Of a DNA stretch of 32,000 bases, positions 7,115 through 32,000 are shown piece by piece. The first letter of the stretch is position 1; the number at the start of each line of letters is the position of its first letter. The notes below the pieces were generated by a model, which was given only the letters and a program-made list of their open reading frames with translations, made no database searches and was not told the DNA's origin. Origin of the DNA: an uncultured Actinomycetes bacterium (GTDB lineage Bacteria; Actinomycetota; Actinomycetes; S36-B12; CAIYMF01); contig CAWJMG010000003.1 of the NCBI GenBank assembly GCA_963843975.1, positions 2,726,297 to 2,758,296 on the forward strand, given 5' to 3'. The position numbers and the translations under genes are program-made.

Positions 7115-7318
7115 CGATATCCATCCTCGCGCCCGTGGTTGGCCACGTGGAGCATGCCACGGTTCGACGCCCGCACGCTGCCGTACATCACGACGCACTC
7201 CGCGGTCCGCAGTCGGCCCCGGGAGCAATCGGAGCGCCGATCGACCAGCCGTAGGGCCGGCCGAACGAACCGGGTCAGCCGCCCAGCCGGAACGGGAAGA
7301 ACGACAGCGGTGAGAGCG

Positions 7319-7588: not shown

Positions 7589-7659
7589 GTGCTCAGCATG
7601 CCGGTCGGGTCCGACGACTCCGGGCAATGCGTCACGGCGGCGGCTTGCCGGCGTGCGCG

Positions 7660-15601: not shown

Positions 15602-16743
15602 GACCCCTCACCCGCTCCCGCAGGGCTGGCGGCGGGGCGGCGGGGAGCGACCGGGCCGCTCGAGGGCGACGCCGCCCCCGCGGCGGCCACCGTCGCAGCG
15701 CGGGCGCCGGCCCCTGCTGCCGCCCCACCCGGGCCCAGGACCATGCCGGTGGCGACGGACTGGGCCGCGAACCTGGCTTGATTCCCCGCCGCCCGAGCGG
15801 TTCGCGGAATCGGGCCGGCCGCGACAGCCCCGTGCATCACCGACGCTGCTTCCATCCCGGTCCAGTGCACGAACCGCCACGTCAGCCAAGGCGCGAGCAC
15901 CGCGATCGACAGCAGCAGCAGCCCGGCTAGCAGATCCGACAGCGACCCCGACGTCTCCGACGCAGGAGCGCTGCCCGTGCCAGCGTCGGGGCCGGTGCCG
16001 GAGAACGCGCTCGCCCCGACCACGAAGACCACGACGATGACGACCTTGGACAGCACCAGCGCCGCCACGATCTCGATCCAACGCCGCGCCCACACCCGGG
16101 TCTGGTCCCACGCAAGCCCCGCGAACGCGACCGGCGCGAACACGATGACCAGGATCAGCGCTGCCTTGCGGAACAGCAGCACCCCCCACAGCAGCAGGAA
16201 CCCCACGATCAGCGTGCCGCCGAGGACGAGCTGCAGCACCGGGCCCGAGGACGGCCCGGCCAGCCACGTCAGGTCGACGAACCGTGCTGCCGCGTCGCGC
16301 ACGGTCAGCCCGGACGCGGCAGCGATCGCCTGGCACACCTGATCGGTGGCCAGCAGCGCGGACTGTGTCACCACCACGGCGAACCCTGCCCCCAGCACTG
16401 CCTTCGCGACCCCGATGACCGCGCGGGCGAGGCCGCCGGGCTCGCGGCGCAGCACGGAGGTCAGCACCTGAAGCACGAACAGGCCAACCACCGCCGGCAG
16501 GGTCACCGCAGCCAGGACGGCGACGTTCGCCCGCAGCCACGACGCGGAGGTGTCGACCGCGGTCGTGGCGTCCAGCACGGTGAGCGCCGCGCTGGACACC
16601 TGCTCCGCGGCGGTCACGAACGCCGCCCCGAGCCCGCCCAGGATCGACTCCGACACGGCCGACCCCGCCGCATCGACGACGCCTGTCGCGGCCGTGCACA
16701 CCGGGTCCAGCGGCCCCGTACACAGATCCGGGAGCGCGGCCAT
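15598..16743 (-). CDS. polytopic membrane protein, VirB6/TrbL-position T4SS channel component
   Basis: 381 aa from ATG 16743 (TGATG junction with the upstream gene). At least 6 hydrophobic helices and an A/G/P/S-rich C-terminal tail. The assignment rests on position and topology only. Confidence 0.7.
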   Translation of the reverse strand: MAALPDLCTGPLDPVCTAATGVVDAAGSAVSESILGGLGAAFVTAAEQVSSAALTVLDATTAVDTSASWLRANVAVLAAVTLPAVVGLFVLQVLTSVLRREPGGLARAVIGVAKAVLGAGFAVVVTQSALLATDQVCQAIAAASGLTVRDAAARFVDLTWLAGPSSGPVLQLVLGGTLIVGFLLLWGVLLFRKAALILVIVFAPVAFAGLAWDQTRVWARRWIEIVAALVLSKVVIVVVFVVGASAFSGTGPDAGTGSAPASETSGSLSDLLAGLLLLSIAVLAPWLTWRFVHWTGMEAASVMHGAVAAGPIPRTARAAGNQARFAAQSVATGMVLGPGGAAAGAGARAATVAAAGAASPSSGPVAPRRPAASPAGAGEGS

Positions 16744-17048
16744 CAGCCGATCCCCGCGCCCAAGCCGGAGAAGAACGCCACGATCGCGTTCGCGCCACCG
16801 ATCAGCAGCGCCCCGCCCGCCGAGACCAACACGCCGGTCTTGCCGTTGCTGGTGTGGGAGTAGTTGCCGCCGTGGTGCCCGAGCGCCCAGACGATGACGG
16901 AGACCACCAGGCCTGCGACGCACGCCACCAGGCCCCATGTCAGCAGGGCGCCCACGATCTGCTTGAGCACCGACAGTCCCGGCAGGCCTCCGTTGTTCGG
17001 GCTGATCCCCGGATCGGCGGCTAGGACGACAACGCGTGAGACGAACAT
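16743..17048 (-). CDS. small two-TM membrane protein, first gene of the T4SS operon (DUF6112-like; VirB2-position)
   Basis: 101 aa. AGGGAG lies 9 nt upstream of ATG 17048. PNNGGLPGLSVLKQIVGALLTWGLVACVAGLVVSVIVWALG ... GKTGVLVSAGGALLIGGANAIVAFF matches the pattern recalled for DUF6112 proteins. Confidence 0.75.
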   Translation of the reverse strand: MFVSRVVVLAADPGISPNNGGLPGLSVLKQIVGALLTWGLVACVAGLVVSVIVWALGHHGGNYSHTSNGKTGVLVSAGGALLIGGANAIVAFFSGLGAGIG

Positions 17049-17059
17049 CGGAGGCTCCC

Positions 17060-17099
17060 TGTGTCGGCATCCGACCGGGGCGACTACCGGTCCGACACA
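17060..17099 (-). promoter_or_regulatory. bipartite inverted repeat abutting the RBS of the first T4SS gene
   Basis: tgtgtcgg (17060-17067) pairs with ccgacaca (17092-17099). The inner gaccgg (17073-17078) pairs with ccggtc (17087-17092). It sits in the 178-nt gap between the AAA ATPase stop and the T4SS operon start. Confidence 0.4.
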
Positions 17100-17226
17100 A
17101 GGTGCGCGGATTCAGCGCCCGACAGGCGACCGAGCCCTGGACGAGAGAACTGCGGCTGGCCAGCGAGATGCGGCAGGTCATGAGTCGATCTCGGCCGGCT
17201 CGGCTGACGCGCCCCGGGCCGTTGGC

Positions 17227-18432
17227 TCAGCGGCGGCGGACCGGCGGGACTTCCAGGTCGGGAATCGCGCGCTTCATGAACTTGTCGAAGTGCGGCACGG
17301 TGAAGGCGGCGTACCCGTGCTCGGGCGTGTAGAGCAGGCCCATAGCGATGAGCTCAGCGCGTGTCGGTGCCACCTGCGGCGACGTGCGGTCCAGCAGGGC
17401 TGCAACGTCGGCCGCCTTCTGCGGTGCTGCGCCGAGCTCGGCCATGGCGCGCAGGTAGACCCGCTGCATCTCCGTCGCGCGGTCCAGGCGAACGCGGAAG
17501 AACGAGGAGTCCAGCTTCGACTCGTAAAGGGGCAGAGCCGCCTCGACGTCATCGGGGGTGATCGTCGGCCCGCCCGCCACACCCCACACGGCGTAGCCCA
17601 ACTCCTGGATGAAGTACGGGTAGCCCTCGGTCAGCTCAACGGCGAGGTCCAGCGCACCAGGGCTGAAGGTCGCGCCCTCGCTCTCGGCCGGGTCGGCCAG
17701 CGCGCGGCTCGCGTCCGCGTCGCTCAGGCTGCCGATCCGCGGGAACTTGAACAGGCGCTCGGCGTACGACTTCGCGTCCCCTGCCAACTCAGCGATCTGG
17801 GGCAGGCCCGCACCCACCATGGTGACCGGGAGGCCGCGCTGCACCGTCTTGTGCAGAGCCGCGATCAGCGCCTCGAGCTGGGGCTGGGTGAGGAACTGCA
17901 CCTCGTCGTAGAGCAGGACCACCCCGCGGCCCTGCTCCTGCGCCGCTTCGCCGATCGCGACGAACAAATCGCTCAGGTCGCGGTGCAGGTTGCCGCTGTC
18001 CGCCTGCCCCTCCAGCGCAGCCACGTCGACGCCAGCCGTCAGCGACCCGGACGGGTCGACGGAGATCGAGAAGGATCGCAGCACCGAGGCGGCGCGCTTG
18101 AGCCGATCGCTCCACCGCGCCTTCGGGGACAGCTCGAACAGCGCGGTCCGGAAGTCCGACACCAGGTCGCGGCGGAACGCGTCGTCGGAGTGCTTGCTCA
18201 CCTCGCTGTCGATCACGACCCAGCTCTGCCCGAGCGCCTCCGTGCGGAAGCTGCCCAGCAGGACCGTCTTCCCAACCCCGCGAAGACCAGTGATGATCAT
18301 CGACTGCTCGGTGCGACCGGCCGCCATCCGGGCCAGCAGCAGCGCGAAGGTCTGCAACTGGTCGTCGCGACCTAGGATCACCGGCGGTCGCGCGCCAGCG
18401 TTGGGCGTGTAGGGGTTGCGCAGCGGGTCCAC
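17227..18432 (-). CDS. AAA+ ATPase with C-terminal winged-helix-like region (AAA_16 / Orc1-Cdc6-like ATP-binding protein family)
   Basis: 401 aa with a GTG start at 18432. N-terminus NPYTPNAGARPPVILGRDDQL. Walker A ITGLRGVGKTVLL. Walker B GVVLLYDEVQFL. No Shine-Dalgarno is seen upstream, so the transcript may be leaderless. Confidence 0.85.
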   Translation of the reverse strand: MDPLRNPYTPNAGARPPVILGRDDQLQTFALLLARMAAGRTEQSMIITGLRGVGKTVLLGSFRTEALGQSWVVIDSEVSKHSDDAFRRDLVSDFRTALFELSPKARWSDRLKRAASVLRSFSISVDPSGSLTAGVDVAALEGQADSGNLHRDLSDLFVAIGEAAQEQGRGVVLLYDEVQFLTQPQLEALIAALHKTVQRGLPVTMVGAGLPQIAELAGDAKSYAERLFKFPRIGSLSDADASRALADPAESEGATFSPGALDLAVELTEGYPYFIQELGYAVWGVAGGPTITPDDVEAALPLYESKLDSSFFRVRLDRATEMQRVYLRAMAELGAAPQKAADVAALLDRTSPQVAPTRAELIAMGLLYTPEHGYAAFTVPHFDKFMKRAIPDLEVPPVRRR

Positions 18433-18773
18433 GCAAGCAACGTTATCGATGTTAGTTCGCTTTAGCCAGATTCTCTAAACCTCGGTAAACCCCAAAAAGG
18501 CAATGGTGCACGAAGTCCGGGTCGAGCTGCGACACATGGCGCCACAGCACCCCAAGGCTGGCGTGGCAGTGAAGCACCCACCCGGGACACCGTGCAGCCC
18601 AGCTGCCGGCGGCCGACCGGTTCCTACTGTTGTTACTGCGGCAGCGCGGGGCTCCAAGCTGGGTCGACGGGATGTCTTCGGGCCAACCCAATTGCCACCT
18701 GCGACATGGCGGTCACTGTTTCAGTTGTTGTTCCGGTTGTCGTTGAGGTAGCGAGAGGAGTACCATCTCGAAC

Positions 18774-19616
18774 GTGTCCAGCCGCGAGGTCTACCCGAAC
18801 GCGCCCTTGGTCCTGGTGGCAGCGGAGATCCGCCACCCCGATGCCGGCACGTTGAGCGACAGAGAGAAGCAGCAGCTCAAGCGCGCGCTCGCAGACGAAC
18901 TGCCTGTGGCTAGGCCGCTCAATCGCCCCGCTGGAATGGTCGCCACCATCGGTCCCGGCGTCGCCGCCCCTCAGTTCCAACCCACCCCGGCCATCAGCTC
19001 CCCCCGCTTCCTCAGCCGCGACCTGGTTACGAGCGCGACGTTCCATGCGGACGCCGTGGTCATCGAGACGACTGAATACCCTGGGTTTGAGGCGTTTCTT
19101 GCGCTTACCCAACGGGTGCTCTCAGCCCGGCTGAGCGTCGGATCGCTCGACGGGGTGGAACGACTCGGTCTGCGCTACATCGACGAGATCCGAGTACCCA
19201 GCGTCGGCGACACCAGCTCATGGAGAGACTGGATCGGACCCACCCTTCTGGGGCCGAACCACCTGGCTGATCAGCTGGAGCTGACGAACGACGCGTGGCA
19301 GGGCATCTCCACCTACTCCGGCAAGCTGGACGCTGGCGATTTCGAGCAGATGTCGCTCGTCCTGCGCTACGGAACCGGGGAGGGATACGCCCTCGCCCCC
19401 GACGGCGATCTACGGCGCAAGACCCCGCCGCCCGGACCCTTCTTCCTGATCGACATCGACAGCTACTGGGGTCCGGCCACACAGGCGGTTCCGGAGCTTG
19501 ACCTGAACGCGGTCACGAGCGCGTTGGAGGCGCTCCACGGACCAGTGAGAACCCTGTTCGAAAGCTCGATCACCGACCGACTCCGAGACGAGGTGCTTCG
19601 CCGCAATGGCAAGTGA
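18774..19616 (+). CDS. TIGR04255-like conserved hypothetical protein
   Basis: 280 aa. GTG 18774 is the first start after an in-frame stop, with AGAGGAG 13 nt upstream. The N-terminus EVYPNAPLVLVAAEIRHP resembles the Y..APL.E...E.RF start recalled for TIGR04255. Length fits that family. Confidence 0.7.
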   Translation: MSSREVYPNAPLVLVAAEIRHPDAGTLSDREKQQLKRALADELPVARPLNRPAGMVATIGPGVAAPQFQPTPAISSPRFLSRDLVTSATFHADAVVIETTEYPGFEAFLALTQRVLSARLSVGSLDGVERLGLRYIDEIRVPSVGDTSSWRDWIGPTLLGPNHLADQLELTNDAWQGISTYSGKLDAGDFEQMSLVLRYGTGEGYALAPDGDLRRKTPPPGPFFLIDIDSYWGPATQAVPELDLNAVTSALEALHGPVRTLFESSITDRLRDEVLRRNGK

Positions 19617-20244
19617 CAACGACCTGGCCACAGCCGAGTCGCAGCTCGGCGTGCCCCGCCTGGAAGCAGCGCAGCGCTCCTCGACCCAGACATCGACTCA
19701 GCTCACGGAGAAGGCGGGCTTCCTACGCCATCAGGTGCGCCAGCTCAGCGACGACACCCAAGGGCTACACCTCGACACCCAGCTCAACGAGTGGACCGAC
19801 CGGGCCATGCGTCGAGGCAAGGAGGCACCCCTCGAACTCCTGGGTCACCTGTCAGACCTCGGATTCTCCTGGCGAGACATCGCCCGCATGGTCCGCGTGA
19901 GCGTGCCGTCAGTGCAGAAGTGGCGGCGTGGCGGCAAGGTCACTGGAGACAACCGGCGCATGCTCGCCAACCTCGTCGCAGCTTGCGACCTGATCACCGA
20001 GGATTACCTCGTCAGTGAGGTCGCGTCCTGGTTCGAGATGCCGTTGGTCACGGGCATCCCGGTCACCCCCGTCGACCTCTACGCACAGGAGCAGTACCAG
20101 CTTCTGTTCGACTACGCGGGCAACCACACAGACACGGAGACCGTCCTCAACCAGCTGAACCCCGACTGGCGTCAGCAGTACAGCTCGGACTTCGAAGTGT
20201 TCGCGGCCGAGGACGGGCAACTGTCCATCCGGACCAAGGGCTGA
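19606..20244 (+). CDS. HTH protein with Xre/MbcA/ParS-antitoxin-like (DUF2384-like) C-terminal region
   Basis: 212 aa. ATG 19606 overlaps the upstream gene by 11 nt. The HTH is FSWRDIARMVRVSVPSVQKWRRGG. The C-terminal EVASWFEMPLVTGIPVTPVDLYAQEQYQLLFDYA resembles the W...P...L.G..P.DLL motif of DUF2384. Confidence 0.7.
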   Translation: MASDNDLATAESQLGVPRLEAAQRSSTQTSTQLTEKAGFLRHQVRQLSDDTQGLHLDTQLNEWTDRAMRRGKEAPLELLGHLSDLGFSWRDIARMVRVSVPSVQKWRRGGKVTGDNRRMLANLVAACDLITEDYLVSEVASWFEMPLVTGIPVTPVDLYAQEQYQLLFDYAGNHTDTETVLNQLNPDWRQQYSSDFEVFAAEDGQLSIRTKG

Positions 20245-20245
20245 C

Positions 20246-20968
20246 ATGCCCAGTGAGCTCGAGGCACCCCATGACTGGGGAGAGCTGTATCTCGCGCGTG
20301 GAGAGGACGTCGCTGATGAGCGGCCCGTCTTCACCGGAGACGTGTTCACTCGGCGCCCGCTTGCGGAGGGCCAGGCCAGCGAGGCCGTCGGTCCCTCGCA
20401 GCTGCTCGTACTCCAGCACCCCTGCGCGCTCCGCATCAACGGAGTTGACCTTGTCCCGCGCATTCTCGTAGCGGAGGTCGAGCCGGCACCGCTGCTCTCC
20501 ACGGAACAGTGGAAGGGGAGCTTCAAGCTCATGCCACTGCCTGAGCTGCTGGAAGCCGTCGGAGGCGACTCCGGTCACCGCGCGGGCAAGTTCAACCAGA
20601 TCCTGGTGGTCACCCCGGAGGACCTTGCCGCGTACGACCGTGTCGCCTGCCTTTCCGAGGTCGGTGTGAACCTCCTCCTTCAGCGGTGGGTCCACCACAA
20701 CAGCCGAGTCATCGTCCCGACCCATCTCTTCGCAGAAGTCACCGCGGGGCCATCTGCCGAAGCGGAACTGACCGAGGACTGGGTAAGCGAGCGTGTGACC
20801 CAGGGGGCCGACCCCGCCGCCGCCGAACACGAGTGTCACGACTTCCTCCGCAGCCAGCCAAGCGCCGACGGGCCGACACGGCAGGACGCCTTGCGCGACC
20901 CACAGAGAAGGTCCGAAGTCCGGCGAGCTGCGAGGGCACAACTCGCCCTGCCCATGCTGCCTGCCTAG
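20246..20968 (+). CDS. hypothetical protein (240 aa), candidate partner or toxin of the preceding HTH protein
   Basis: ATG lies 1 nt after the upstream stop. Composition is protein-like (RPVFTGDVF ... LVLQHPCALR ... LLLQRWVHHNSRVIVPTH). Codon-3 GC is moderately high. No family recognised. Confidence 0.65.
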   Translation: MPSELEAPHDWGELYLARGEDVADERPVFTGDVFTRRPLAEGQASEAVGPSQLLVLQHPCALRINGVDLVPRILVAEVEPAPLLSTEQWKGSFKLMPLPELLEAVGGDSGHRAGKFNQILVVTPEDLAAYDRVACLSEVGVNLLLQRWVHHNSRVIVPTHLFAEVTAGPSAEAELTEDWVSERVTQGADPAAAEHECHDFLRSQPSADGPTRQDALRDPQRRSEVRRAARAQLALPMLPA

Positions 20969-21034
20969 CCGATCGCCATCAAGTCTACGCAGTTCGCGAA
21001 TAGGGACCTGGGGGAGATGGCTGAGGCGACCAGA

Positions 21035-21271
21035 TCAGCCCGCGTCGAGCTTCTGTTGAGCGATATCGAGGCGGCGGTGCAGCAGACTCGCGGACCCGAG
21101 GTACTCACGGGCGCTCTCTGGGTCCTCGTGTCCGAACAGTTCGTGAGCTCGGGTTGCAGATGCCCAGCATCGCACCGCGGAAGCTGAAGTGAATGCCCTG
21201 CATCTCGTCCAGCCCGCTCCGGCCATGCTCCGTGGACACGTCCAGCCTCGGCGGCTTCCCGGCGGAGTCAT
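21035..21271 (-). pseudogene. possible decayed gene remnant downstream of the LysM-SARP gene
   Basis: A 78-aa ORF whose ATG overlaps the upstream stop (ATGA 21268-21271). However, the high codon-3 GC signal sits in a different frame for the first ~40 codons (..LDVSTEHGRSGLDEMQGIHFSFRGAMLGI..) and switches to the annotated frame only for the last ~35 (HELFGHEDPESAREYLGSASLLHRRLDIAQQKLDAG). Confidence 0.25.
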
Positions 21272-24200
21272 TTGCTCGTCGTCAGTAGTGCGCTCAAGGT
21301 CGCGTCCAGTGTCGCGTCGGGGTCGATAGCCCTGACTTGCTCGCGAAGTCGGTGGGCAAGCCGCTCGAGTTCGCAGCGGTCGCCGGTTCGTGCCGCGAGG
21401 AGCATGGCCTGGTAGGCGAGGGCCTCACTGGCGGGCTCGACGGTGAGTCCTGTGGCGAGTGCGGACCGCGCGGCGGTCGGTCTGCCTCTGTCCATGAGGT
21501 GAGTGGCGGTGTCGTGGGCGATGTCGACGATGGTGCTGATCATCGTCTGGGCATCGGCCTCCGCCCACGCGTAGCTGGCGGGGTCGACCCCGAGGAAGGG
21601 GCGCCCGCGGACGAGCCTGAGCGCCGCGTCTAGCTGATCGCCGTCCTCCTCGACAAGCCCGTGGCGGGCCAGGCGGAGCAGGTCTTGCCAGTCGCTGCGC
21701 ACGGCGGGGTGCAGTCGGTACCCGCGGCCGGAGTTGTTGCTGTGGTCGAGGTAAGGCCGCCCGTCGTGGTCGGTGCCGAGCCAGGTGCGGGTTCGGGAGA
21801 TTAGGGAGTTCCGCATGTCGTACGTGACGCGCTGGCCGGGCCAGAGTGCATCGTCAAGCTCGCTGGCGCTCGCCCCGGGGTGAAGGGCCAGGTAGGCGAG
21901 CAGCTCCAGGGAGCGGCCTCGGCGCGCGGTTGCGGGGGTGCTGGCGCCTGTGACGTCGACGCGGCCGAGCAGCAGAATGCGGGGGGCGTCCGGATCCGGA
22001 GTGAGGTCTCGCTCGTCGGCCGTGCCGGGGATGTCGGGCAGGGCCGCTATGACGGCAGCTCGGGGTGATCTGAGGGCCAGCGGGGCGGTCGAGATGAGCT
22101 GCTCGATGAGCGACTCGACGTCGTCGGCCTCTTCGGATTCGTCCAACTTGCCGATCTGCGCGGTCGGGCCGGTCGCGGGCGGTTCCGAGCCGGGTGCATC
22201 CTCGCTGAGGTTCTCGGGTTGCTGGTTGGCGGCGTCGAGCAGCGCGAGCAGGGATTCGTAGTCGGAGTCGGAGAGCCGCGAGACAACGATGTGCAGGCCT
22301 AGCGGTTCGAGGACGGCGTCGCCGTCGGCGTGGACGCGCAGCATCCACCCGGTGGCGCTGTCCTGTGGTGCGCTGGCGGTCGTGACGACGGCGACACCCG
22401 ACCACGGTGCCGGACAGATGGCGTTGTCGTGCCCCAGATGCACCTCGGGTGCCCAGTGGTCCGGTGCGCGGCCGGTCGAGCGCGCATCTTGCAGGTCGCG
22501 CACATCGGCGGCTTCGAGCGCGTGGCGCACGGTGGCGAGGCGGACGTCCGCCCGACGGGCAGCGGCGGTGTCGTCGACGGCGGCGACGCGGTCGGGGTCG
22601 GCGACGTCGGCGAGGGCGCGCAGGTGGTGGGTGAGGATGAGCGTGGACGCCGCGGACAGGGGGCTGGTGGCCAGCTCGACCCCCAGCGTTCGAAGGACTG
22701 CCGCCGCCGCGTGGTCGTCGCCAACCAGTTCAAGGGTGCCGGCCGCTTCGAGGTTGAGCAGGAGCATGCGGTCCTCGACCGTGCCGAGGGTCACCAGGGC
22801 GGGGTAGGGGGCGATCCCGGACGTCGACGGCGCCGAATCCTTGCCGGGTGCGCTGTCCAGCGCCGTCGGGTCGAGCCGCCACAGAACGAGGTTGTCGCCG
22901 ACGGGCGCTTCGCCGGCTGGCGCGTTGGTGAACGGTGCGAAGGGGGGAGGCTCGTCGCCAGCGGTGGCACCCCCCATCGAGACGTCCACGATGATGTCGA
23001 GCTGGTGCTGGCCGACAAGGACAGCCAGAAGCCGTGGCATGGGCCGTCCAGTGGTGCGGCAGCCATCGGCCATCTGCTGCAGTGCCGACGCGACGATGTC
23101 GAGGGTGATGGGAGTCCGGGCGCCGCGGAGGATGCGTTCCGCGACGGCGGGGTCCCCGGTGGGCAGGGGGAGACGCTGCCCGGGGCGGCGTTGCTGCTGC
23201 TGACGTCGTCGTCGTCGGGCGAGTTCGGCGAGAAACCCGGTGGCGGTTAGCGCGGTGAGTCCGAGGACCAGATGCGACCAGCTCCTGCTGATCGCGTCTC
23301 CGGCTTCTGCCTCAGCTGACGGGGTGGCTGTCTGCTGCGAGCTCGGCCCCGTCGGGGCGGGCGTCGCTGCCGCGCGCTCGGGCTCTGGTGCGGGGGTGCG
23401 GTGGGGCGGGGCCGTGACAGCTCCCGGCGTCGTCGGGACCGGCATCACCGGCGCTCGACCGTCCGGCTCGTCGACGGCAGGCGCTTCGGGCGTCCGGGGT
23501 GGAGTCGTCGGCGCGGTCCGAGGAGCCTGGTCGGCGCCCTGACGGGCGGGCAGCACGAGGATCCAGCCGGGCCGGATGAGCCGGGGGTCGTCGAGGTGCT
23601 GGCCATCGGGTTGGGTGCGGTCACGGTTGAGCCGGTGGATCTCCCGGTAGCGCAGGGGATCGCCGAGCTGATGGGCGGCGATGTCCCAGAGCGTGTCGCC
23701 ACGCTGCACCACATAGGCGCGGTGCTCCGAGCCGCCGTTCTGCGTCGCCGGTTGCGGCGTCGGCTTCGACGCGTGGGCAGTGTCGGGTGCGGCGGCGTGC
23801 TGCTCGGGCAGGAGCAGGACCCAGCCGGGGTGGATCCAGTGGGTGTCGGTGAGGGTGCGGCCGTCGTGCTGGGGGCGCCCGTAGTTGAGGCGGGCGATCT
23901 CGCGGAAGCGTGCGCCGTCGCCGAGGTGGGTGGCTGCGAGGTCCCAGAGGGTGTCGCCACGCATGACGGTGATCGTGCGGTCGCGAGCAGCTCGGCCCGC
24001 CTGATGGACCTGATCATGCGCATGGGCGTGCACCGCGGTCGAGGATGCGGACGGTTGAACTGCGCTGTGGTCGGCCTGCGGCTGACGCGTGGTCGCGGCA
24101 TCAGGCTGCGCCGCCAGCCGCGGCGTGGCCAGCGCCGAGGTCGGGATCGGGGTCGACGCCGTCGACCCTGTTGGTGCCAGGTCTGCGGCTGCGGCCGGGA

Positions 24201-24645
24201 CCGCTTGGAAGTGTCCGGGTGCGGTGCCGGTGGGTGCGGCCAGGAGCATCGCGGCCGACGCGACCAGGGACGCGGCGAGCTTCTGTGGCGCACCCGCCAG
24301 CGGGAGTCGTGGCGTGGGCAGGCCGCGCAGCATCGCGAGCGTCTCCACGACCACGGAGACGGCGAACACCGCCCACGCAGCCCATGCCAGCAGCGTCAGC
24401 GCGGTCAGCAGGAGGCGTCCGTCGTCGGGGCGGGTCAGCGCGGAGGTGATTGCCTGCCAGGACAGGGCCGGCCAGTCCAGCGCCGGGGCGACAACCAGCA
24501 GCAGTGCGGGGATGCCGACCATGAGGGCTGCGAGCGCGAGCAGGGCGGCCAGGGCGCGCGCGATCTCGGCGCCGCGGCGGTGGCGCCTGGCGTGGGTCAC
24601 GGACTCTGCCCCTCGGCTGGTCGCCTGGGTGGTGGTTCTGGTCAT
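21268..24645 (-). CDS. multi-pass membrane protein with two extracytoplasmic LysM domains and a cytoplasmic SARP-type wHTH plus BTAD domain
   Basis: 1125 aa. Three N-terminal TM helices. LysM1 at aa ~224-280 (nt ~23806-23976): ITVMRGDTLWDLAATHLGDGARFREIARLN...IHPGWVLLLP. LysM2 at aa ~310-366 (nt ~23548-23718): YVVQRGDTLWDIAAHQLGDPLRYREIHRLN...IRPGWILVLP. TM4 is SHLVLGLTALTATGFLAELA followed by RRRRRQQQQRR. The C-terminal ~260 aa (RILLLGRVDVTG...SLELLAYLALHPG...ELDDALWPG...GYRL....DW..LL...AL.LVRGRPFLG) fit the SARP/AfsR wHTH plus BTAD pattern. Confidence 0.9.
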   Translation of the reverse strand: MTRTTTQATSRGAESVTHARRHRRGAEIARALAALLALAALMVGIPALLLVVAPALDWPALSWQAITSALTRPDDGRLLLTALTLLAWAAWAVFAVSVVVETLAMLRGLPTPRLPLAGAPQKLAASLVASAAMLLAAPTGTAPGHFQAVPAAAADLAPTGSTASTPIPTSALATPRLAAQPDAATTRQPQADHSAVQPSASSTAVHAHAHDQVHQAGRAARDRTITVMRGDTLWDLAATHLGDGARFREIARLNYGRPQHDGRTLTDTHWIHPGWVLLLPEQHAAAPDTAHASKPTPQPATQNGGSEHRAYVVQRGDTLWDIAAHQLGDPLRYREIHRLNRDRTQPDGQHLDDPRLIRPGWILVLPARQGADQAPRTAPTTPPRTPEAPAVDEPDGRAPVMPVPTTPGAVTAPPHRTPAPEPERAAATPAPTGPSSQQTATPSAEAEAGDAISRSWSHLVLGLTALTATGFLAELARRRRRQQQQRRPGQRLPLPTGDPAVAERILRGARTPITLDIVASALQQMADGCRTTGRPMPRLLAVLVGQHQLDIIVDVSMGGATAGDEPPPFAPFTNAPAGEAPVGDNLVLWRLDPTALDSAPGKDSAPSTSGIAPYPALVTLGTVEDRMLLLNLEAAGTLELVGDDHAAAAVLRTLGVELATSPLSAASTLILTHHLRALADVADPDRVAAVDDTAAARRADVRLATVRHALEAADVRDLQDARSTGRAPDHWAPEVHLGHDNAICPAPWSGVAVVTTASAPQDSATGWMLRVHADGDAVLEPLGLHIVVSRLSDSDYESLLALLDAANQQPENLSEDAPGSEPPATGPTAQIGKLDESEEADDVESLIEQLISTAPLALRSPRAAVIAALPDIPGTADERDLTPDPDAPRILLLGRVDVTGASTPATARRGRSLELLAYLALHPGASASELDDALWPGQRVTYDMRNSLISRTRTWLGTDHDGRPYLDHSNNSGRGYRLHPAVRSDWQDLLRLARHGLVEEDGDQLDAALRLVRGRPFLGVDPASYAWAEADAQTMISTIVDIAHDTATHLMDRGRPTAARSALATGLTVEPASEALAYQAMLLAARTGDRCELERLAHRLREQVRAIDPDATLDATLSALLTTSK

Positions 24646-25088
24646 GGTGCGGCTCCGGTGATGCCGGGGACGAGGGTGGCGCTGGCACGCCCGTTCACGG
24701 TGAGGGTGTGAATACCGATGAGGCCGAGGAACACGGTCGGGGTCGAGTCGGCGACGGTCACGGTGACGGTGGTGCCGGTGGTGGTGACGGTCCCGGTGAC
24801 GCCGCGGGCGGTGAGGTAGGCGCGGGCCGCTGCGGTCGCTGCGCGGGTGTCGAGGGTGGGGTCCTGGCCGGTGATGGCGTCGGAGACGTCGATGCGCTGC
24901 CCGGCGACGCGCGCCGCGTCGGCGGCCAGCGCGTCGGCGCGTTGGATACCGCGGATCTTGGCGCCGCCGTCGACGACGAGGCCGATGAGGACGAGCAGCC
25001 CGAGGACGGTGATGGACAGGAACACCGTCGCCGACCCCTCATCGCAGCGCCCGCCGTGTCGCTGCCTCGTGGGACGTCTGGAGGTCAT
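24642..25088 (-). CDS. TadE/TadG-like pseudopilin (Rv3654c-type)
   Basis: 148 aa with ATGA overlaps at both ends. The N-terminus DEGSATVFLSITVLGLLVLIGLVVDGG followed by RADALAADAARVAG is typical of TadE/G-like N-terminal domains. Confidence 0.75.
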   Translation of the reverse strand: MTSRRPTRQRHGGRCDEGSATVFLSITVLGLLVLIGLVVDGGAKIRGIQRADALAADAARVAGQRIDVSDAITGQDPTLDTRAATAAARAYLTARGVTGTVTTTGTTVTVTVADSTPTVFLGLIGIHTLTVNGRASATLVPGITGAAP

Positions 25089-25561
25089 GACCGGCCCCGG
25101 TAGGTGTCCAGCGGGCTGGTCGCCGTCGCGGTGACCTGCCGCGATCCGGGCATGCCGGGCACGGCGAGACTGGACAGCGACACCGTGCAGGTGACGGTCG
25201 CGGTGACCGATGCCGGGCGTCCGACGGGGACGGCGAACCCGCTGGTATCCACGGTGACGCGCACGGTGGCGCAGTGCAGGTCGCCGGTGTCGAGCTCGCG
25301 GCGCGCGGCGCTGGTCGCGGTGCTGGTGGCGGCCGCCTGGTCGCGGGCCAGGGTCGCAGCGCGTGCGGCGGTCTGGGCGGCGTGGTCGACCTCCTGGTGC
25401 GCGATGGACAGCCGGCCGGCGACGACGACGAGGGCGAGCAGGACCAGCACAGCGGGAGCGAGGATCGACAGCTCGAGGGTCACCGACCCCGCATCGGCGC
25501 GGCGGGCCGCGCCCAGGGCGTGGTCCACGGCGCGCCGCTGTCCCGGGTGTGTGCCGGTCAT
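25085..25561 (-). CDS. TadE-like minor pilin
   Basis: 158 aa from ATG 25561 (ATGA overlap). GSVTLELSILAPAVLVLLALVVVAGRL is a TadE N-terminal motif. Confidence 0.75.
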   Translation of the reverse strand: MTGTHPGQRRAVDHALGAARRADAGSVTLELSILAPAVLVLLALVVVAGRLSIAHQEVDHAAQTAARAATLARDQAAATSTATSAARRELDTGDLHCATVRVTVDTSGFAVPVGRPASVTATVTCTVSLSSLAVPGMPGSRQVTATATSPLDTYRGRS

Positions 25562-25998
25562 GGGGTGTCCGTGGTGAAGCGCTCGACGGGGACGAGGGCG
25601 TCCTGGGTGACGGTCAGGCCGGGGACGCCGGGCAGCACCGACAGGGCTCGGCCGCTCACCTCGATCCGGACGAACGCGGTTGTGGTGCCTGCGGCCGTGA
25701 CGGACGTGCCGGTCAGGGAGTCCCCGGCGTGGTCGGTGAGGAAGGACCGGGCCCGCGCCACCGCCGCTCCCGTGGTCGAGTTGTAGGCAGCGCCGGCGGC
25801 GGCGCCTTCCTGCGCTGCGGCCTGGGCGAGGTTGCGGGCGTGGAACCACAGGCCACCCTGGACGATCGAGAACACCAGCAGCAGCAGTGCGGGCGCGAGG
25901 ATCGCGATCTCCAGGCTCACCGACCCGTCCTGCCCGCGGGCATGCCACCGACGGCATGGGGCGGTGCCGACGGTTCCTGCCGGTGAACGGGCGGGCAT
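25558..25998 (-). CDS. TadE-like minor pilin
   Basis: 146 aa. GSVSLEIAILAPALLLLVFSIVQGGLWFHARN is a TadE N-terminal motif. It starts 18 nt downstream of the pilin gene. Confidence 0.75.
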   Translation of the reverse strand: MPARSPAGTVGTAPCRRWHARGQDGSVSLEIAILAPALLLLVFSIVQGGLWFHARNLAQAAAQEGAAAGAAYNSTTGAAVARARSFLTDHAGDSLTGTSVTAAGTTTAFVRIEVSGRALSVLPGVPGLTVTQDALVPVERFTTDTP

Positions 25999-26016
25999 AA
26001 CTGCGGCGGGCCGTGG

Positions 26017-26217
26017 TCAGTTGATCTGGTCGGTGCGGCGGGTGACGGCCAGGGTGATCGCGGTGACCAGCAGCGTCGCGACCGCGATGAGCCCGAGCAC
26101 GATGATCACCAGCTCCAGGGTCGAGACACCGTCCTCACCCCGATTGCGCAGGGTGCGGCTGGTGCGGGCGAGGTGGCCGGCGAGCAGGACGCGGGCGGCG
26201 AGCAGGGTGCTGGTCAT
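26017..26217 (-). CDS. flp: Flp-type (DUF4244-like) prepilin
   Basis: 66 aa with AGGAG 9 nt upstream of the ATG. A basic leader is followed by G/VSTLELVIIVLGLIAVATLLVTAITLAV (G then xxxxE then a hydrophobic helix). Its position between tadC and the tadE genes matches actinobacterial Tad loci. Confidence 0.65.
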   Translation of the reverse strand: MTSTLLAARVLLAGHLARTSRTLRNRGEDGVSTLELVIIVLGLIAVATLLVTAITLAVTRRTDQIN

Positions 26218-26279
26218 CGGGAGGTGCTCCTGTCCGGTACGGCGTGCATGGGCATTGCTGGGTGGGATTGGAAGTGCTT

Positions 26280-27167
26280 CTAGGAGAACAGGATCCGGGC
26301 GAAGGCGGGGTAGCCGATCAGGGCCATGAAGGCGATGCCCAACAGGGCGACGGGGATGATCATGTGCTCGCTGGCGGCGTTCGCCTCCGCCGCGGACGCG
26401 GCCAAGAGCTGGTGACGCAACGAGGCAGCGCGGGCGCGCAGGGTGGCGTAGACGGCGGCGCCGTCGGTGCCGGACAGTCGCATGATGTCGGCGAGGTCAC
26501 CGAGCTCGGGGACGCCGACCTGCTCCGCGAGCTCGCTCAGGGCGTCCCAGGGCGGGCGCCCGGCGAGTTCGGCGCGGGTCAGGGCGTCGCGGATGCGCAC
26601 GAACCCGGGGGCGTCGGCGACCCATGCCGCGCGCTCGAGGGCCTGCACGGTTCCGGCGTCGCCGGCGCGTTCGAGGGCGACGAGCTCGAGGTAGGCGCAC
26701 ACCGCCAGGCGCATCGCGTCCCGCTCGGTCTGCGCGCGGCGGCGCAGGTCCGCGTCGGGCACCCAGAACAACACCGCGGCCAGCAGCAGCGACACCGCAG
26801 CGGGCACGACGAGCGGGGGCACGATGCCCAGCAGGGCGACCGCGGCGAGCAGGACCGGCGGGAACGCGAGCCCGATCAGCGCGTAGCCGGTCTTGCGCGC
26901 CGCCAGCGCCGCCGGGGTCTCGCCGAGCAGGGCGAGGTCGCGGGCGTAGCGGTCCAGGTGCAGGCGGGCCGCGAGGTCGGTGAAGACGCCGTCGCTGGTG
27001 CGCTGCCACTGTGACCCCCCGACCACGGCGACGGGTTCAGGGTCGGCGGTGTCCAGGCGGGCCAGGGCGGCGGCGAGGTCGGGGACGTCGGGGACCAGGG
27101 CGCGGATCAGCACCGCGACACCCGCGCCCACGCTCGCGCCGGTGGCGATCACCAACGGGTCGATCAT
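26280..27167 (-). CDS. tadC: TadC-like pilus platform protein (T2SS-F domain)
   Basis: 295 aa from ATG 27167 (ATGA overlap). TM helices flank a cytoplasmic helical domain. The gene is third after the ATPase, and its C-terminus IIPVALLGIAFMALIGYPAFARI is typical. Confidence 0.8.
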   Translation of the reverse strand: MIDPLVIATGASVGAGVAVLIRALVPDVPDLAAALARLDTADPEPVAVVGGSQWQRTSDGVFTDLAARLHLDRYARDLALLGETPAALAARKTGYALIGLAFPPVLLAAVALLGIVPPLVVPAAVSLLLAAVLFWVPDADLRRRAQTERDAMRLAVCAYLELVALERAGDAGTVQALERAAWVADAPGFVRIRDALTRAELAGRPPWDALSELAEQVGVPELGDLADIMRLSGTDGAAVYATLRARAASLRHQLLAASAAEANAASEHMIIPVALLGIAFMALIGYPAFARILFS

Positions 27168-28084
27168 GAGCCGGTCCTCCCCGAAGCGGCGGGCGTCCAG
27201 GCGGGGTCCGCGGCGTCGCCGAGCCGGGTTGATCCGGTGGGCAGGAACAGTCGCGGCTGCGGGCGGGTCAGGGTCAGCGCCCGCATCCACGCCAGCGATG
27301 CGATGAACCCGCACGCGATCACCGCGAGGACCAGCTGGCCGAGCAGGGTGCCGTAGGGGGCGAGGTAGGTGCCGTTGAGTGTGCCGACGGCGACCACGCC
27401 GAGGGTGATGAGGGTGACCGCGCGGGCGGTGGTGCGGGGCTTGGCGCGCTCGGCCTCCACCCGGCGGCGCATCGCGACCTCCTCGGCGACGGAGTCCGCG
27501 ACCGCGGCCAGGACTCGTGCCAGGCCAGGGCCGCGGCGGCGGGCACCCAGGATCAACGTGGCGACGACGAGGTCGCCGGTGGCGTCGTCGAGGTCGTCGG
27601 CGAACGCGCGCAGCGCGGCCTCGGTCGACCAGCGGGCGTCCAGCCGCGCCGCCAGCGCGGACACCTCGCCCTGCAGGCGTTGCGGGCAGGTGCGCACGGT
27701 CGCGGCGATGCCCTGCTCGAGACCGACACCGACCACCAGCACGTCGGACAGGCGCCGGGTCCATTCCTCCAGCGCCTCGATCCGGTCGATGCCCGCGGCC
27801 GCGACAGTCGAGGTGCCGAGCAGGATGGGCAGGCCCCACACGGTTGCGGCGACGATGAGTGCGGCGACTGGCCACCCGGTGACCAGCCACGCCGCGGCAG
27901 CGCCCAGGACTGCGACGATGGCGCGCGCCGTCGACCCGGCCCGCATCCGCTGCGGGTGCGTCGTCGCAGTGCGACGCGGCACCGGTGCGGGTGCGGGTGC
28001 GAGCGCAGGGAACAGTCCGGCGACAACCAGCAGCACGCCAGCGACAAGGATCGCGCCGGTGACCGCAGCCAGGACGGCGGTCAC
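27164..28084 (-). CDS. tadB: TadB-like pilus platform protein (T2SS-F domain)
   Basis: 306 aa from GTG 28084 (GTGA overlap with the tadA stop). N-terminal TM and C-terminal TM pair with a central helical domain (LDDATGDLVVATLILGARRRGPGLARVL). Confidence 0.8.
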   Translation of the reverse strand: MTAVLAAVTGAILVAGVLLVVAGLFPALAPAPAPVPRRTATTHPQRMRAGSTARAIVAVLGAAAAWLVTGWPVAALIVAATVWGLPILLGTSTVAAAGIDRIEALEEWTRRLSDVLVVGVGLEQGIAATVRTCPQRLQGEVSALAARLDARWSTEAALRAFADDLDDATGDLVVATLILGARRRGPGLARVLAAVADSVAEEVAMRRRVEAERAKPRTTARAVTLITLGVVAVGTLNGTYLAPYGTLLGQLVLAVIACGFIASLAWMRALTLTRPQPRLFLPTGSTRLGDAADPAWTPAASGRTGS

Positions 28085-29541
28085 GACGGTGCTCCGACCA
28101 CGTCGAGCGGCATGGTCCAGGTGCCGGTGCGGTGGTCTAGGAACCCGGGGTCGAACCCGGCCCGGATGAGTTCCGGCAGGCACGCCGGTGCGTGGGTGGG
28201 GACGCCGCGCCCGTCGGGTCCGGGGGCGAAGACGGTCGTGGTGGTGGGGCGGCCGAACTCGCCCATCCCGTTGATCTCCACGATGTCGGACACGAACCTG
28301 TGCCGCCGCCCGCCGATGTGGGTCTCGTCCAGCAGGCGTGCGTGGACGATGAGGTCCACGGAGCCTGCGACCAGGCGGTAGGCGAACGTGTCGGTCATCC
28401 CGATGTCTGCGGACAGGCACAACGTGACGAGGCGGTCCAGGGCGTGCGCGGCGGTGCGGGAGTGGATCGTGCACAGCGACCCGTCGCCGGTCGACATCGC
28501 CTCCAGCATCGGGACCGCCTCGCTGCCGCGGACCTCGCCGACGATGATGCGCCGCAGGTTCATCCGTAGCGCATCCACCACCAGCTCGGACAGCGTCACC
28601 TCGCCCGCGCGGCGGCCCGATGGGTCGCGTTCGCTGGATCCGTCGCGGGCCTCCATCGCCACCACCCGGGGGTGTCGGTCGGGGAGCTCGTGCAGGTGCA
28701 GCTCGTACTCCCGCTCGATGGTTGCGAAACGCTCCATCGGGTCGAACTCGTTGGCCAGCGCCCGGATCAGGGTGGTCTTGCCCGCGTTCTGCAGCCCGGT
28801 GACGATGATGTTCTTCCCGGACCGCAGCGCCGCGCGCAGGAACGCGACCAGCGCGGTGTCGAGCATCCCGAGGGCGATCAGGTCGTCGAGGTCGACGTCG
28901 CGGACCCGGTGGCGGCGCACCACCACCTGAGGGCGCGGTGTCGTCCACGCCATCGCCGCCAGACGGGATCCGTCCTCCAGGCGCAGGTGCAAGCGCGGGT
29001 TCGCGGTGGTGAAGGTGCGTTCGTTGCCCGCCACCCGAGCGGCCAGGTGCTGGAGCTGCTCGAGGAGCTCGGCGTCGGAGTCCGCAACAGCTGGGCCGCG
29101 CTCCTCGCGGCCATCCGCATAGGACACCCAGACCTGGTCGTGGCCGTTGACCTCGATGTTCTCCACCATCGGGTCATCGACCAGCGGCTGCAGGCGTCCC
29201 AGGCCGAACAGCGCCGACATGACCGCGTCGGCGAGCGCGAACTCCTCCTCCACGCTCCACCCCGGGACGCCGGCTCGCGCGGCGTCGCGGGACCGGGCGG
29301 TCAGGACATCGGCGAGCAGGGAGCGGCACAGCTCCTGCCGGGCCGCGGTGTCTGTCAGCGGGTCGGTCTGCAGGCGGGCGGCGAGGCGTTCGGCGACCTC
29401 TCGGCGCAGCACCCGGACCAGCCCGTGATCGACCGACAACCCTGCGCCCGGGTCGGCCGCGGGCGGTTCGGGCTCGGGCCACGCGCGCAGCGCGGGCGTG
29501 CCGAGGTCGTCGACTTGCCAGGCGCGCAGCTGCTCGGTCAC
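28081..29541 (-). CDS. tadA: TadA/CpaF-family secretion ATPase
   Basis: 486 aa. Walker A IIVTGLQNAGKTTLIRAL. Asp box FATIEREYEL. Walker B RRIIVGEVRGSEAVPMLEAMSTG. His box SLCTIHSRTAAHALDRL. Confidence 0.95.
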   Translation of the reverse strand: MTEQLRAWQVDDLGTPALRAWPEPEPPAADPGAGLSVDHGLVRVLRREVAERLAARLQTDPLTDTAARQELCRSLLADVLTARSRDAARAGVPGWSVEEEFALADAVMSALFGLGRLQPLVDDPMVENIEVNGHDQVWVSYADGREERGPAVADSDAELLEQLQHLAARVAGNERTFTTANPRLHLRLEDGSRLAAMAWTTPRPQVVVRRHRVRDVDLDDLIALGMLDTALVAFLRAALRSGKNIIVTGLQNAGKTTLIRALANEFDPMERFATIEREYELHLHELPDRHPRVVAMEARDGSSERDPSGRRAGEVTLSELVVDALRMNLRRIIVGEVRGSEAVPMLEAMSTGDGSLCTIHSRTAAHALDRLVTLCLSADIGMTDTFAYRLVAGSVDLIVHARLLDETHIGGRRHRFVSDIVEINGMGEFGRPTTTTVFAPGPDGRGVPTHAPACLPELIRAGFDPGFLDHRTGTWTMPLDVVGAPS

Positions 29542-30375
29542 GACCCCACCACCGTCGCCTGGTCGGGGGCGGATGCGGAAGAGCGCAGCGGCGCCTCGTC
29601 GGACGTCGGGGCGGACAACGGCGTGCGACGCTCGGCGCTGTCGCGGAGCCGAGTGGTCACGGCGGCCGCGGAGCGCATCAGCGCGGTGCGAGCGAACCAG
29701 CGTCCGGCAGGCGCGCCGTCGCTGAGCACCACGGCCGCCCGAGGATCCCAGGCCAACGATCCGAGCAGCGGCAGCCCGAGGGAGGATGCGACCTCGTCGG
29801 CAGCGTAGGGGCGTCGCTCACCGACGACCAGCAGCCAGCGCCGCGGCGACGCCGAGCCCGCCGGCTCGGCTGTGCGCATCGCCTTCGCGGCGGGCCGCGC
29901 TGCAGCGACCGCACGCAACGACGACCCGGTCACGAGCACCACGAGGTCCGCAGCCGCCAGCAGCGATGCGTCAGCGCCGGCAGGCAGTCGTCCGACGTCG
30001 ACGAGGACCGTCCAACTCTCCTCGCCGGTGCTGTCGAGCTGCACGCAGCCGCGACCAGGCCGGGGTCGCGCCGGGCTTGGTCGGCGGGAACGGTGCGGGA
30101 CCGGCGAGCAGGAGCCGGGACCCGGTCGCGTCGAGCGCGACAGCGGAACCGTGGACCGCGTCGAGCAGGTCGCTGCGTGCCGTCGCGACGGCGCCGGCTC
30201 CGGCGCCCGGCCCGGTCCCGCCCAGCAGGTACCCGGAGGCGAGGTCCGCGCCGGCCGGGTCGGCGTCGACCAGAAGCACCGAGCCCCCGTTCAGCGGCCA
30301 GGCCAGAGCCAGGGCCAGCGCGGTGGTGGTCGCCCCGGGCGCGCCCTTGGCCGAGCACACCACGATCACGGTCAT
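29538..30375 (-). pseudogene. tadZ: TadZ/Ssd-like ParA/MinD-family protein, reading frame interrupted by a 1-nt shift near 30045
   Basis: The span is 838 nt, which is not a multiple of 3. The N-terminal part (ORF 29971..30375) is MTVIVVCSAKGAPGATTTALALALAW...VLLVDADPAGADLA, with a deviant Walker A. The C-terminal part (ORF 29538..30044) is WTVLVDVGRLPAG...ADLVVLVTGSSLRAVAAA...WLLVVGERRPYAADEVASSLGLPLLGSLAWDP. The high codon-3 GC switches frame exactly at ...tcg cgg ctg / c / gtg cag ctc... (30044-30048). Confidence 0.7.
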
Positions 30376-31052
30376 GACACGGCCACCCGCGGCAGCAGCA
30401 CCAGCGCGATGCGCCCCGTCGCGGCCCGAGCCGCCAGCGCCGGACCGTCCCCGGCCGCGACGGTGACGTCGAGCACCGACACCCCGTTGAGGTCAACCGG
30501 GCCGACCCGCACGACGGTCGCCGCCAGAGTCGCGGGCGGCCCGGTCGGCGGGTCGCCGTCCACGCCAGGGGTCTCGACGATGAGGATCCGGTCACCGGGC
30601 GTCAAACCACCCGCCGGCAGCCGGTCGGCCTTGAGCGGAACACCGACCAGGACCTCCCCCGCCTTCGGGGGTGCCGCGGCGGTGAGCTGCGCGGGCGCCA
30701 GCAGCGACCCAGCCACGATCGTCGTCGCAGCGACCTGGCCCACGACCTGGTCACGCTCGCCCGCCGGGATAACGGCGACCCCGCCCGTGCCGGCGACCTC
30801 GACGGTCGACAGGTCGGCGTCGGTCAGGACCGTCCCATAGGGGACGTCGCGCGCCGCGACCAGCACCGCGACGCGGGCGCTGCTGGTCGACACCAGCCAC
30901 GCAGCCGCGAGCGCTCCCACCGCGACCAGGGCCACACCCAGGGCAAGCAGCCCCGGACGGCGGCGCGGCCGTGGGGCGCGCATCGGTGCAGCGACCGGCA
31001 TCGCCCGCGTCGGCCCGTCCGCCCGGGCCGTGCCAGAACTCGTGGTCATCAC
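30372..31052 (-). CDS. cpaB: SAF-domain Flp pilus assembly protein (CpaB-like), first gene of the Tad operon
   Basis: 226 aa (GTG 31052 or ATG 31049). N-terminal TM LLALGVALVAVGALAAAWLV. SAF-like VAVLVAARDVPYGTVLTDADLSTVEV. The stop overlaps the tadZ start (ATGA). Confidence 0.8.
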   Translation of the reverse strand: MMTTSSGTARADGPTRAMPVAAPMRAPRPRRRPGLLALGVALVAVGALAAAWLVSTSSARVAVLVAARDVPYGTVLTDADLSTVEVAGTGGVAVIPAGERDQVVGQVAATTIVAGSLLAPAQLTAAAPPKAGEVLVGVPLKADRLPAGGLTPGDRILIVETPGVDGDPPTGPPATLAATVVRVGPVDLNGVSVLDVTVAAGDGPALAARAATGRIALVLLPRVAVS

Positions 31053-31708
31053 CGCCCCAATTCAGTCTTGACAGATGCGGCTCTACCTCTCTTGATAGTT
31101 GATGTAGGGATGGTCTTTAATGTCTCGAGAGATAGGGTGTAATAGCCAAGTTGGTTAGGAACACGCTTCCATCTATTTTCACCTTTACCTTTGGATAGAT
31201 TTTTGGTGACACGCTCTTTCGCAACTCGGAAAACTGTTTCTGTAAGCTCTCCGTATAGGATATTTACCACATCATCAGCATTAATTGCTTGCCCTTGACG
31301 TTCATTCAAAATCTTGGCGATCGCTTCGGTGAGGGTGAGACCTTCATAGGCAGGACGAGTTGTCAAAGAACCACGACGATGACCTCTTCCTCTTCCCTTT
31401 GATACAGGAGCAGGAGCTACCTCGACCTTGGCTTTAGGTTTACGACCTTTGGTAGGCGCTGGTGGAGCTTCAACAATAACAGGAAGGACTGGTACAACAG
31501 CCGCTACAGCTTCTTTCTTTTTACCTTTAGCCTTAGGAGCTTCAGCAGGTAAGCTTCCTAGAAGGGCTTCAACGTGAGCGAGTTGGGCGCGAGCTTGAGC
31601 AACTTTATCTTCGTATTCAGCGAGAAATCCTTGCAAATGGGATTGTAAAGCTTGTAGAGACGCGCCAAAACCGTCTGGCTGTAAACTTACAGGTAGATCT
31701 ATACTCAT
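31049..31708 (-). CDS. AT-rich-genome protein: N-terminal coiled coil, K/A/P-rich histone-H1-like linker, C-terminal HARE-HTH-like winged-helix domain
   Basis: 219 aa with A/T-preferring codons. LTLTEAIAKILNERQGQAINADDVVNILYGEL...VTKNLSKGKGENRWKRVPNQLGYYTLS resembles the HARE-HTH pattern. The linker is APKAKGKKKEAVAAVVPV...PAPTKGRKPKAKVEVAPAPVSKGRGRG. The last two codons and the stop come from the GC-rich side of the junction, so the 3' end may be non-native. Confidence 0.65.
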   Translation of the reverse strand: MSIDLPVSLQPDGFGASLQALQSHLQGFLAEYEDKVAQARAQLAHVEALLGSLPAEAPKAKGKKKEAVAAVVPVLPVIVEAPPAPTKGRKPKAKVEVAPAPVSKGRGRGHRRGSLTTRPAYEGLTLTEAIAKILNERQGQAINADDVVNILYGELTETVFRVAKERVTKNLSKGKGENRWKRVPNQLGYYTLSLETLKTIPTSTIKRGRAASVKTELGR

Positions 31709-31744
31709 ACTATGGGAACCAAAAAAATAATGATTGATTGATGT

Positions 31745-31792
31745 GATGAGTTTACTTCCTCATGGTTTTTCTAATGATGGAAGAAACTCATC
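31745..31792. repeat. imperfect inverted repeat upstream of the AT-rich ORF
   Basis: gatgagtttacttcc (31745-31759) pairs with ggaagaaactcatc (31779-31792) with a 1-nt bulge and a 19-nt loop. It lies 37 nt upstream of the ORF start at 31708 on the minus strand. Confidence 0.5.
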
Positions 31793-31955
31793 ATTTCGTT
31801 CTATCACGTTTTGAGAGAACTCGCAATAGTTTAGAAAGAATTCTCACCATTATCTATTTTTTTATGGCAACTTTTAAACGAGTGGCTGCTCTTGAGAAAG
31901 CTGGAAATTGTTTCTAGTAAAGCTTTATAGCCTTCAAACCACCTAGATATAGCTA

Positions 31956-31994
31956 AAAGACAGAAAGAGACGAATATTGTCCCTTTCTGTCTTT
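31956..31994 (+). terminator. candidate intrinsic terminator hairpin
   Basis: A perfect 12-bp stem: aaagacagaaag (31956-31967) pairs with ctttctgtcttt (31983-31994). Three further inner pairs follow one mismatch. On the plus strand it is followed by ATTTCT. The stem is AT-rich, so strength is uncertain. Confidence 0.35.
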
Positions 31995-32000
31995 ATTTCT

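Follow-up and report, generated by a model that had tools for sequence, protein, structure and literature searches.

A blunt join between actinobacterial and Pseudanabaena DNA, almost certainly an artefact of assembly or data handling

The window analysed here, a stretch of 32,000 nt, changes abruptly from GC-rich to AT-rich DNA near its right end, where a piece of an actinobacterial integrative conjugative element (ICE) directly abuts a fragment of a Pseudanabaena chromosome. We conclude that this junction almost certainly arose as an artefact of assembly or data handling and not by cross-phylum transfer. The artefact is favoured because both parents were found intact and unjoined, and because each of them is cut at a non-functional place. 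The single sequencing run ERR12037365 yields both parents unjoined, the ICE on two contigs (L001 and L005) and the cyanobacterial gene on a third (L004). As biology, the junction is probably unimportant, but as a matter of quality control it is important: foreign cyanobacterial sequence and a frameshifted gene are present in the 2.76 Mb actinobacterial contig, or in the window taken from it. Left unflagged, the join would lead to a false call of cross-phylum transfer, and a "promoterless operon" and a fusion protein would be annotated spuriously. We found no paper in the literature for the two accessions. The coordinates of the features discussed below are collected in Table 1.

Table 1. Features of the window and of the related Pseudanabaena sequences (positions refer to the window unless a contig is named).
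Feature	Position	Strand	Evidence or remark
GC-rich (0.72) piece of an Actinomycetota ICE	1..31060	.	Pfam; identity to L001/L005/L007
TrwC relaxase-helicase	2718..6044		Pfam, 1.6e-81
TraG/TraD-type coupling protein	9794..12094		Pfam TraG-D_C/T4SS-DNA_transf
TrbL/VirB6-like protein	15598..17181		Pfam
1125-aa LysM protein	21268-24645		Pfam
TadA-like secretion ATPase (T2SSE)	28081..29541	-	Pfam; query for finding relatives
ParA/CpaE(TadZ)-like gene, in two pieces owing to a 1-nt insertion near 30041	29538..30375	-	intact 278 aa in L001
SAF-domain (CpaB/RcpC-like) gene, complete, native upstream genes lost	30372..31049	-	Pfam SAF
Fusion ORF	31049..31708	-	P0001-family codons 1-216, then TTG GGG CGG TGA from actinobacterial DNA
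Blunt junction between the two parents	31060..31061	.	BLAST end-points and three-way comparison
AT-rich (0.42) Pseudanabaena chromosome fragment	31061..32000	.	99.04% to L002/L003; protein homologues
Small 51-aa ORF, Pseudanabaena locus	31762..31917	+	called as a gene in L002 and L003 too
Native 372-aa Pseudanabaena gene	L002 10001-11119
tRNA-Ser(tga)	L002 11241-11327		122 nt downstream of the 372-aa gene; ~590 nt from the breakpoint
N gap in L079	about 2765-2775		~20 nt before the equivalent breakpoint
N gap in L077	about 2720-2840		inside the linker

Composition break and exact position of the junction

The computed G+C content is 0.723 over 1..31060 and 0.421 over 31061..32000, and the hand counts of 60-nt lines given in the original prediction (47/60, 27/60 and 20/60 G+C) were reproduced exactly. 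Over the whole 32,000 nt, the largest drop in GC between adjacent segments lies at the junction and amounts to 0.37 with segments of 100 nt and 0.34 with segments of 300 nt; with a background standard deviation of 0.053 and 0.032, respectively, these drops correspond to z values of 7.0 and 10.6. The abrupt change from GC-rich to AT-rich DNA was in this way confirmed as the strongest change-point in the window, and its maximum-likelihood position by composition is 31058.

When we compared the two sides with their closest relatives by BLAST, window 31060..28786 matched 6725..8998 of L001 with 99.96% identity, while positions 1..6724 of this contig remained unmatched in the window. On the other side, window 32000..31061 matched 9709..10648 of L002 without gaps and with 99.04% identity over 940 nt, and the match to L003 was likewise 99.04%. 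We place the join at 31060|31061 because the homology end-points of the L001 and L002 matches meet there. The switch had originally been put at about 31058/31059; the break is as sharp as was claimed, but homology moves its exact site 2 nt rightward. The junction is blunt, as each base could be assigned to one parent in a three-way comparison of the window, L001 and L002, and the same comparison detected no microhomology, filler or adapter at 31060|31061.

The tetranucleotide profiles of the two sides are dissimilar. The three GC-rich thirds correlate at 0.97-0.99 with one another and with actinobacterial references, whereas the correlation of the GC-rich side with the 940-nt tail is -0.4 and that of the tail with the Pseudanabaena locus is +0.55. 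Homology, examined for each side on its own, also assigned the sides to different taxa, the Actinomycetota and Pseudanabaena.

The actinobacterial conjugative element and its truncation

The GC-rich side is 100% identical to L005 and L007 and 99.96% identical to L001, a Logan contig of run ERR12037365 that was found by an exact look-up of the ATG-start SAF-domain protein; the identical 225-aa SAF product is encoded on L001. Look-ups of the GTG-start SAF product and of the fusion ORF, in a search that leaves out the source contig of the window and is therefore uninformative for products specific to that source, gave no match. The contig L005, from the same run, corresponds to window 14360..26460 at 100% over 12,101 nt. 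The GC side thus shows no amelioration, with 100% identity to a free-living actinobacterial population over 12.1 kb.

In addition to the genes listed in Table 1, the ICE parts recognised by Pfam in the window comprise an AAA_16 ATPase, TadE-like proteins, a T2SSF protein and DUF6112; VirB4 was not recognised by Pfam among the ORFs scanned. Beyond the breakpoint, L001 carries 6.7 kb more of the ICE, consisting of five ORFs, an Xis-like HTH_17 protein and a tyrosine integrase (Phage_integrase). The integrase is located at 153-1358 of L001, and together with the Xis-like HTH it lies 5.4-6.6 kb past the breakpoint, which is at 6724|6725 of this contig. The set of genes that defines an ICE was found, with a relaxase, a coupling protein and a mating-channel component in the window and an integrase in L001; because of these genes, and of the Xis-like HTH in L001, we regard the GC-rich element as an ICE. 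Judged by its predicted genes, the "Tad operon" is one module of this actinobacterial ICE. When the TadA-like ATPase was used as a query, the related loci all came from Actinomycetota (66/66). The closest of these relatives (96-97%) belong to a Pseudonocardia MAG, an Actinomycetota MAG and the cultured Longivirga aurantiaca, and relatives of the element occur in Longivirga, Cellulomonas, Actinotalea, Pseudonocardia and Nanopelagicales-like MAGs.

Some local features of the GC-rich side were recorded in their own right. A patch at 18000-21000 has a lower GC content (about 0.65, versus 0.72-0.78) and holds three plus-strand genes of 280, 212 (HTH_23) and 240 aa, which run opposite to the flanking minus-strand transfer genes; the patch may represent an ICE islet with a regulatory or cargo role. 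Within the gene of the 1125-aa LysM-domain protein there is an internal direct repeat of 173 nt with 71% identity (23532-23704 and 23790-23962). At the left edge of the window, which cuts it, lies the gene of a DUF347-repeat membrane protein (1-843), and its first 500 nt have the lowest GC content of the GC-rich part (0.63); this gene may be either cargo of the ICE or flanking chromosome.

The ParA/CpaE-like gene differs from its counterpart in L001 by a 1-nt insertion near 30041 (GCGTGCAGCTC against GCGTGAGCTC), which splits the 278-aa gene into pieces of 134 and 133 aa. Both halves (P0108 and P0111) are called products on one 2,758,296-bp NCBI/ENA contig, to which the GC side can thereby be traced, and a 40-mer carrying the window allele had 0 matches in the metagenome contig collection. 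From the sequence comparison, this indel is to be read as a consensus error or a private pseudogene; since a short-read contig from the same population lacks the frameshift, the consensus of the assembly is probably imperfect.

The junction interrupts the ICE within a 43-nt intergenic spacer, and 11 nt separate the cut from the ATG of the SAF gene downstream. In the native context represented by L001, same-strand genes are found upstream of the SAF gene, the nearest ending 43 nt before it. The breakpoint is therefore inside the ICE, 6.7 kb from the integrase end, and the window is without these 6.7 kb, the integrase included. Two details of the original prediction do not survive this comparison: the native 5′ sequence left to the SAF gene amounts to 11 nt (31050..31060), not 6-10 nt, and this CpaB-like gene is not the first of its operon, as L001 has same-strand genes further upstream. 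Seven independent actinobacterial sequences continue uninterrupted across the breakpoint, namely L001 and the species-representative genomes L009, L010, L011 (an isolate), L012, L013 and L016, and L001 is colinear over its full 9 kb with the genome of the cultured isolate Longivirga aurantiaca at 89.8%. The "promoterless Tad operon" is very probably an accidental by-product of the join and without function. We found no assembler-terminating sequence feature at the GC-side breakpoint.

The Pseudanabaena fragment and the fusion ORF

The closest relative of the AT-rich tail, L002, is contig_2947 of ENA ERZ25039499, with a length of 4,565,174 bp. When we compared the two sequences, we found nine substitutions and not a single indel; of the eight codons that differ, seven have synonymous changes and one a conservative change (A-to-V). 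Because the changes are nearly all synonymous and no indels occur, the tail must be the accurate sequence of a real strain about 1% away from L002, and an origin of the nine substitutions in read errors was ruled out on the same grounds. In L002, the sequence corresponding to the tail lies among housekeeping genes and adjoins a tRNA-Ser gene, which is a classic kind of integration target.

The AT-rich ORF equals the first 216 residues of P0001, a protein of 372 aa, except for the one A-to-V change, and the homologues of P0001 come exclusively from Pseudanabaena or Pseudanabaenaceae. The contigs L002, L003 and L004 run through the AT-side breakpoint into the remainder of the 372-aa gene, which is intact in L004, from run ERR12037365. 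The truncated or fused 3′ end that had been suspected for this ORF was borne out, as the 372-aa gene is cut after codon 216. It was also right that the ORF takes its last codons and its TGA from the GC side, although these codons number three (TTG GGG CGG) and not two. The overlap of stop and start (TGATG) is real too; it is native actinobacterial sequence that chances to be in frame.

The 219-aa fusion product (ATG version) is absent from the collection of 15 billion proteins. The alternative-start versions of the fusion ORF are not on record either, but their TTG and GTG starts may have been translated as L or V, so that the negative is sound for the ATG version only. A 41-mer across the junction had 0 matches in the metagenome and viral contig collections, and a 46-mer from the AT side had 0 matches in the genome contig collection. 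In all likelihood, the fusion ORF and its TGATG overlap with the SAF gene are accidental by-products of the join that have no function.

The protein P0001 is made up of two duplicated domains of about 75 aa each, with an AAPKAPK low-complexity linker between them. These domains are HARE-HTH-like, and one homologue is named HTH HARE-type in UniRef, while a Pfam search of the 372-aa protein gave no match. The AAPKAPK linker begins where the gene is broken, at codon 216|217. N gaps occur at this linker in two short-read scaffolds obtained independently from Pseudanabaena relatives (L077 and L079), and as a consequence the 372-aa gene is often split in public gene calls, as exemplified by the 85-aa P0142, which is present on nine contigs. 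Since the AT-side breakpoint is at the linker start, where other assemblies leave N gaps, it resembles a contig end.

Origin of the join and comparison with known systems

Three readings had been offered for the junction in the original prediction. The two artefactual ones are supported, whereas the evidence speaks against the third, in which the junction is the insertion end of the GC-rich element: the break is internal to the ICE, it cuts through a synteny block of seven sequences, and no att repeat, tRNA or inverted repeat accompanies it. The 32,000-nt window has no tRNA and no Rfam match, and in a repeat search of the window no direct or inverted repeat family touches 31040-31080. A comparison of the integrase end of L001 (1-400) with the window gave only chance 9-12-mers, and the att-like direct repeat that had been envisaged was found neither within the window nor against this integrase end. 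Among the inverted-repeat arms reported, none lies at the junction, and no transposase is near it; the other end of the element falls outside the window. On the AT side, the break is in the middle of a CDS, about 590 nt from the native tRNA-Ser, and thus neither in that tRNA nor at the 3′ end of a gene. An ICE att junction would lie at the element end, its relatives would end at the same point, and an att repeat would occur in a tRNA or the 3′ end of a gene; none of these marks is present here.

These observations bear directly on the proposal that at least 31 kb of the actinobacterial conjugative element was truly inserted into the Pseudanabaena chromosome, disrupting the 372-aa gene. We consider this extremely unlikely. 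The GC side is a conjugative element and as such mobile in principle, and the native cyanobacterial locus has a tRNA-Ser gene at a distance of about 590 nt from the breakpoint. However, the break is in a CDS and not in this tRNA, and it is internal to the ICE, with the integrase, the Xis and five other genes missing and hence no att junction. The GC side is 100% identical to an actinobacterial population, without amelioration, and the relatives of the element are all in Actinomycetota. In addition, neither the C-terminal remainder of the gene nor any member of the neighbouring Pseudanabaena gene clusters (seven fully read 90% clusters, from both sides) is on record for the 2,758,296-bp contig, although a gene caller trained on GC-rich DNA could skip AT-rich ORFs, so that missing cyanobacterial products are weak evidence.

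The opposite event, in which a Pseudanabaena chromosomal fragment was really captured inside the actinobacterial ICE, we hold to be very unlikely. In this scenario, non-homologous end joining would have sealed a double-strand break between the 303-aa and SAF genes with a piece of environmental DNA, and the window would then show the first junction only, with the ICE resuming further right. Ku/LigD end joining is present in many Actinomycetota, and a blunt junction without microhomology is compatible with such a mechanism. The GC side is on a 2.76 Mb contig that is otherwise actinobacterial in its behaviour, the two organisms have a common habitat, and a copy frozen after its capture could, like the tail, represent a distinct strain accurately. 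Against this, the short-read contig L001, from a run with an identical ICE, is uninterrupted at the site, and both the junction k-mer and the fusion product are unmatched elsewhere in the collections searched. The captured piece would be half a gene without function, and the cyanobacterial breakpoint coincides with a hot spot of assembly breaks, which is unexpected for a random DNA end. Furthermore, metagenome assemblies contain chimeras of two genomes far more often than DNA captured across phyla at 99% identity. Taken as a whole, a real junction, whether the Pseudanabaena fragment was captured in the actinobacterial conjugative element or the reverse, is very unlikely. It would have arisen in a natural freshwater community by the joining of blunt ends without microhomology, and so recently that either side retains 99-100% identity to its donor. 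If the junction were supported by reads, it would be a rare direct observation of DNA capture that took place very recently, on a conjugative element, between Cyanobacteriota and Actinomycetota.

The explanation that we prefer, and with high probability, is a non-biological join at 31060|31061 between two organisms of one community. The parents are an actinobacterium with the ICE and a Pseudanabaena cyanobacterium living in the same community. The join may stem from a chimeric long read that was incorporated at the end of the 2.76 Mb actinobacterial contig or within it, from scaffolding that abutted two contig ends without Ns, or from a concatenation of two records that preceded the cutting of the window. 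A de Bruijn or shared-k-mer misjoin was ruled out by the zero microhomology at the junction. Being the accurate sequence of a slightly different real strain, the tail does not represent the raw end of one error-prone read. A simple concatenation of two deposited records fits poorly, because the hypothetical 216-aa edge-cut product that it predicts is not on record (it is absent from the collection of 15 billion proteins). Whereas the identities of the parents, the exact breakpoint, the two truncations, the unjoined copies and the run common to both parents are observed, we infer, with strong confidence, that the join is artificial; any of these three routes may have made it.

In its gene content, 1..31060 resembles those T4SS-type conjugative elements of Actinomycetota in which a Tad-like module (TadA/TadB-C/TadE/CpaB/CpaE) is present, a likeness that covers the GC-rich partner only and has no bearing on the junction. 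The comparison with an attL/attR junction of an ICE holds insofar as the GC-rich partner is truly an ICE, with a tyrosine integrase and Xis-like HTH in L001, a TrwC relaxase and a coupling protein; however, the junction described here is 6.7 kb inside the element, is without an att core repeat, and lies where relatives continue across. Inter-genome chimeric contigs and unmarked MAG joins differ from it in two respects, since the usual shared-k-mer misjoin contrasts with the zero microhomology found here, and the tail is of clean consensus quality and not a noisy read end. In their other traits they resemble it: unrelated sequences of one community abut bluntly, both are truncated illogically, each parent can be recovered intact from further assemblies of that sample or of similar ones, and one of the breakpoints is at a repeat where assemblers stop.
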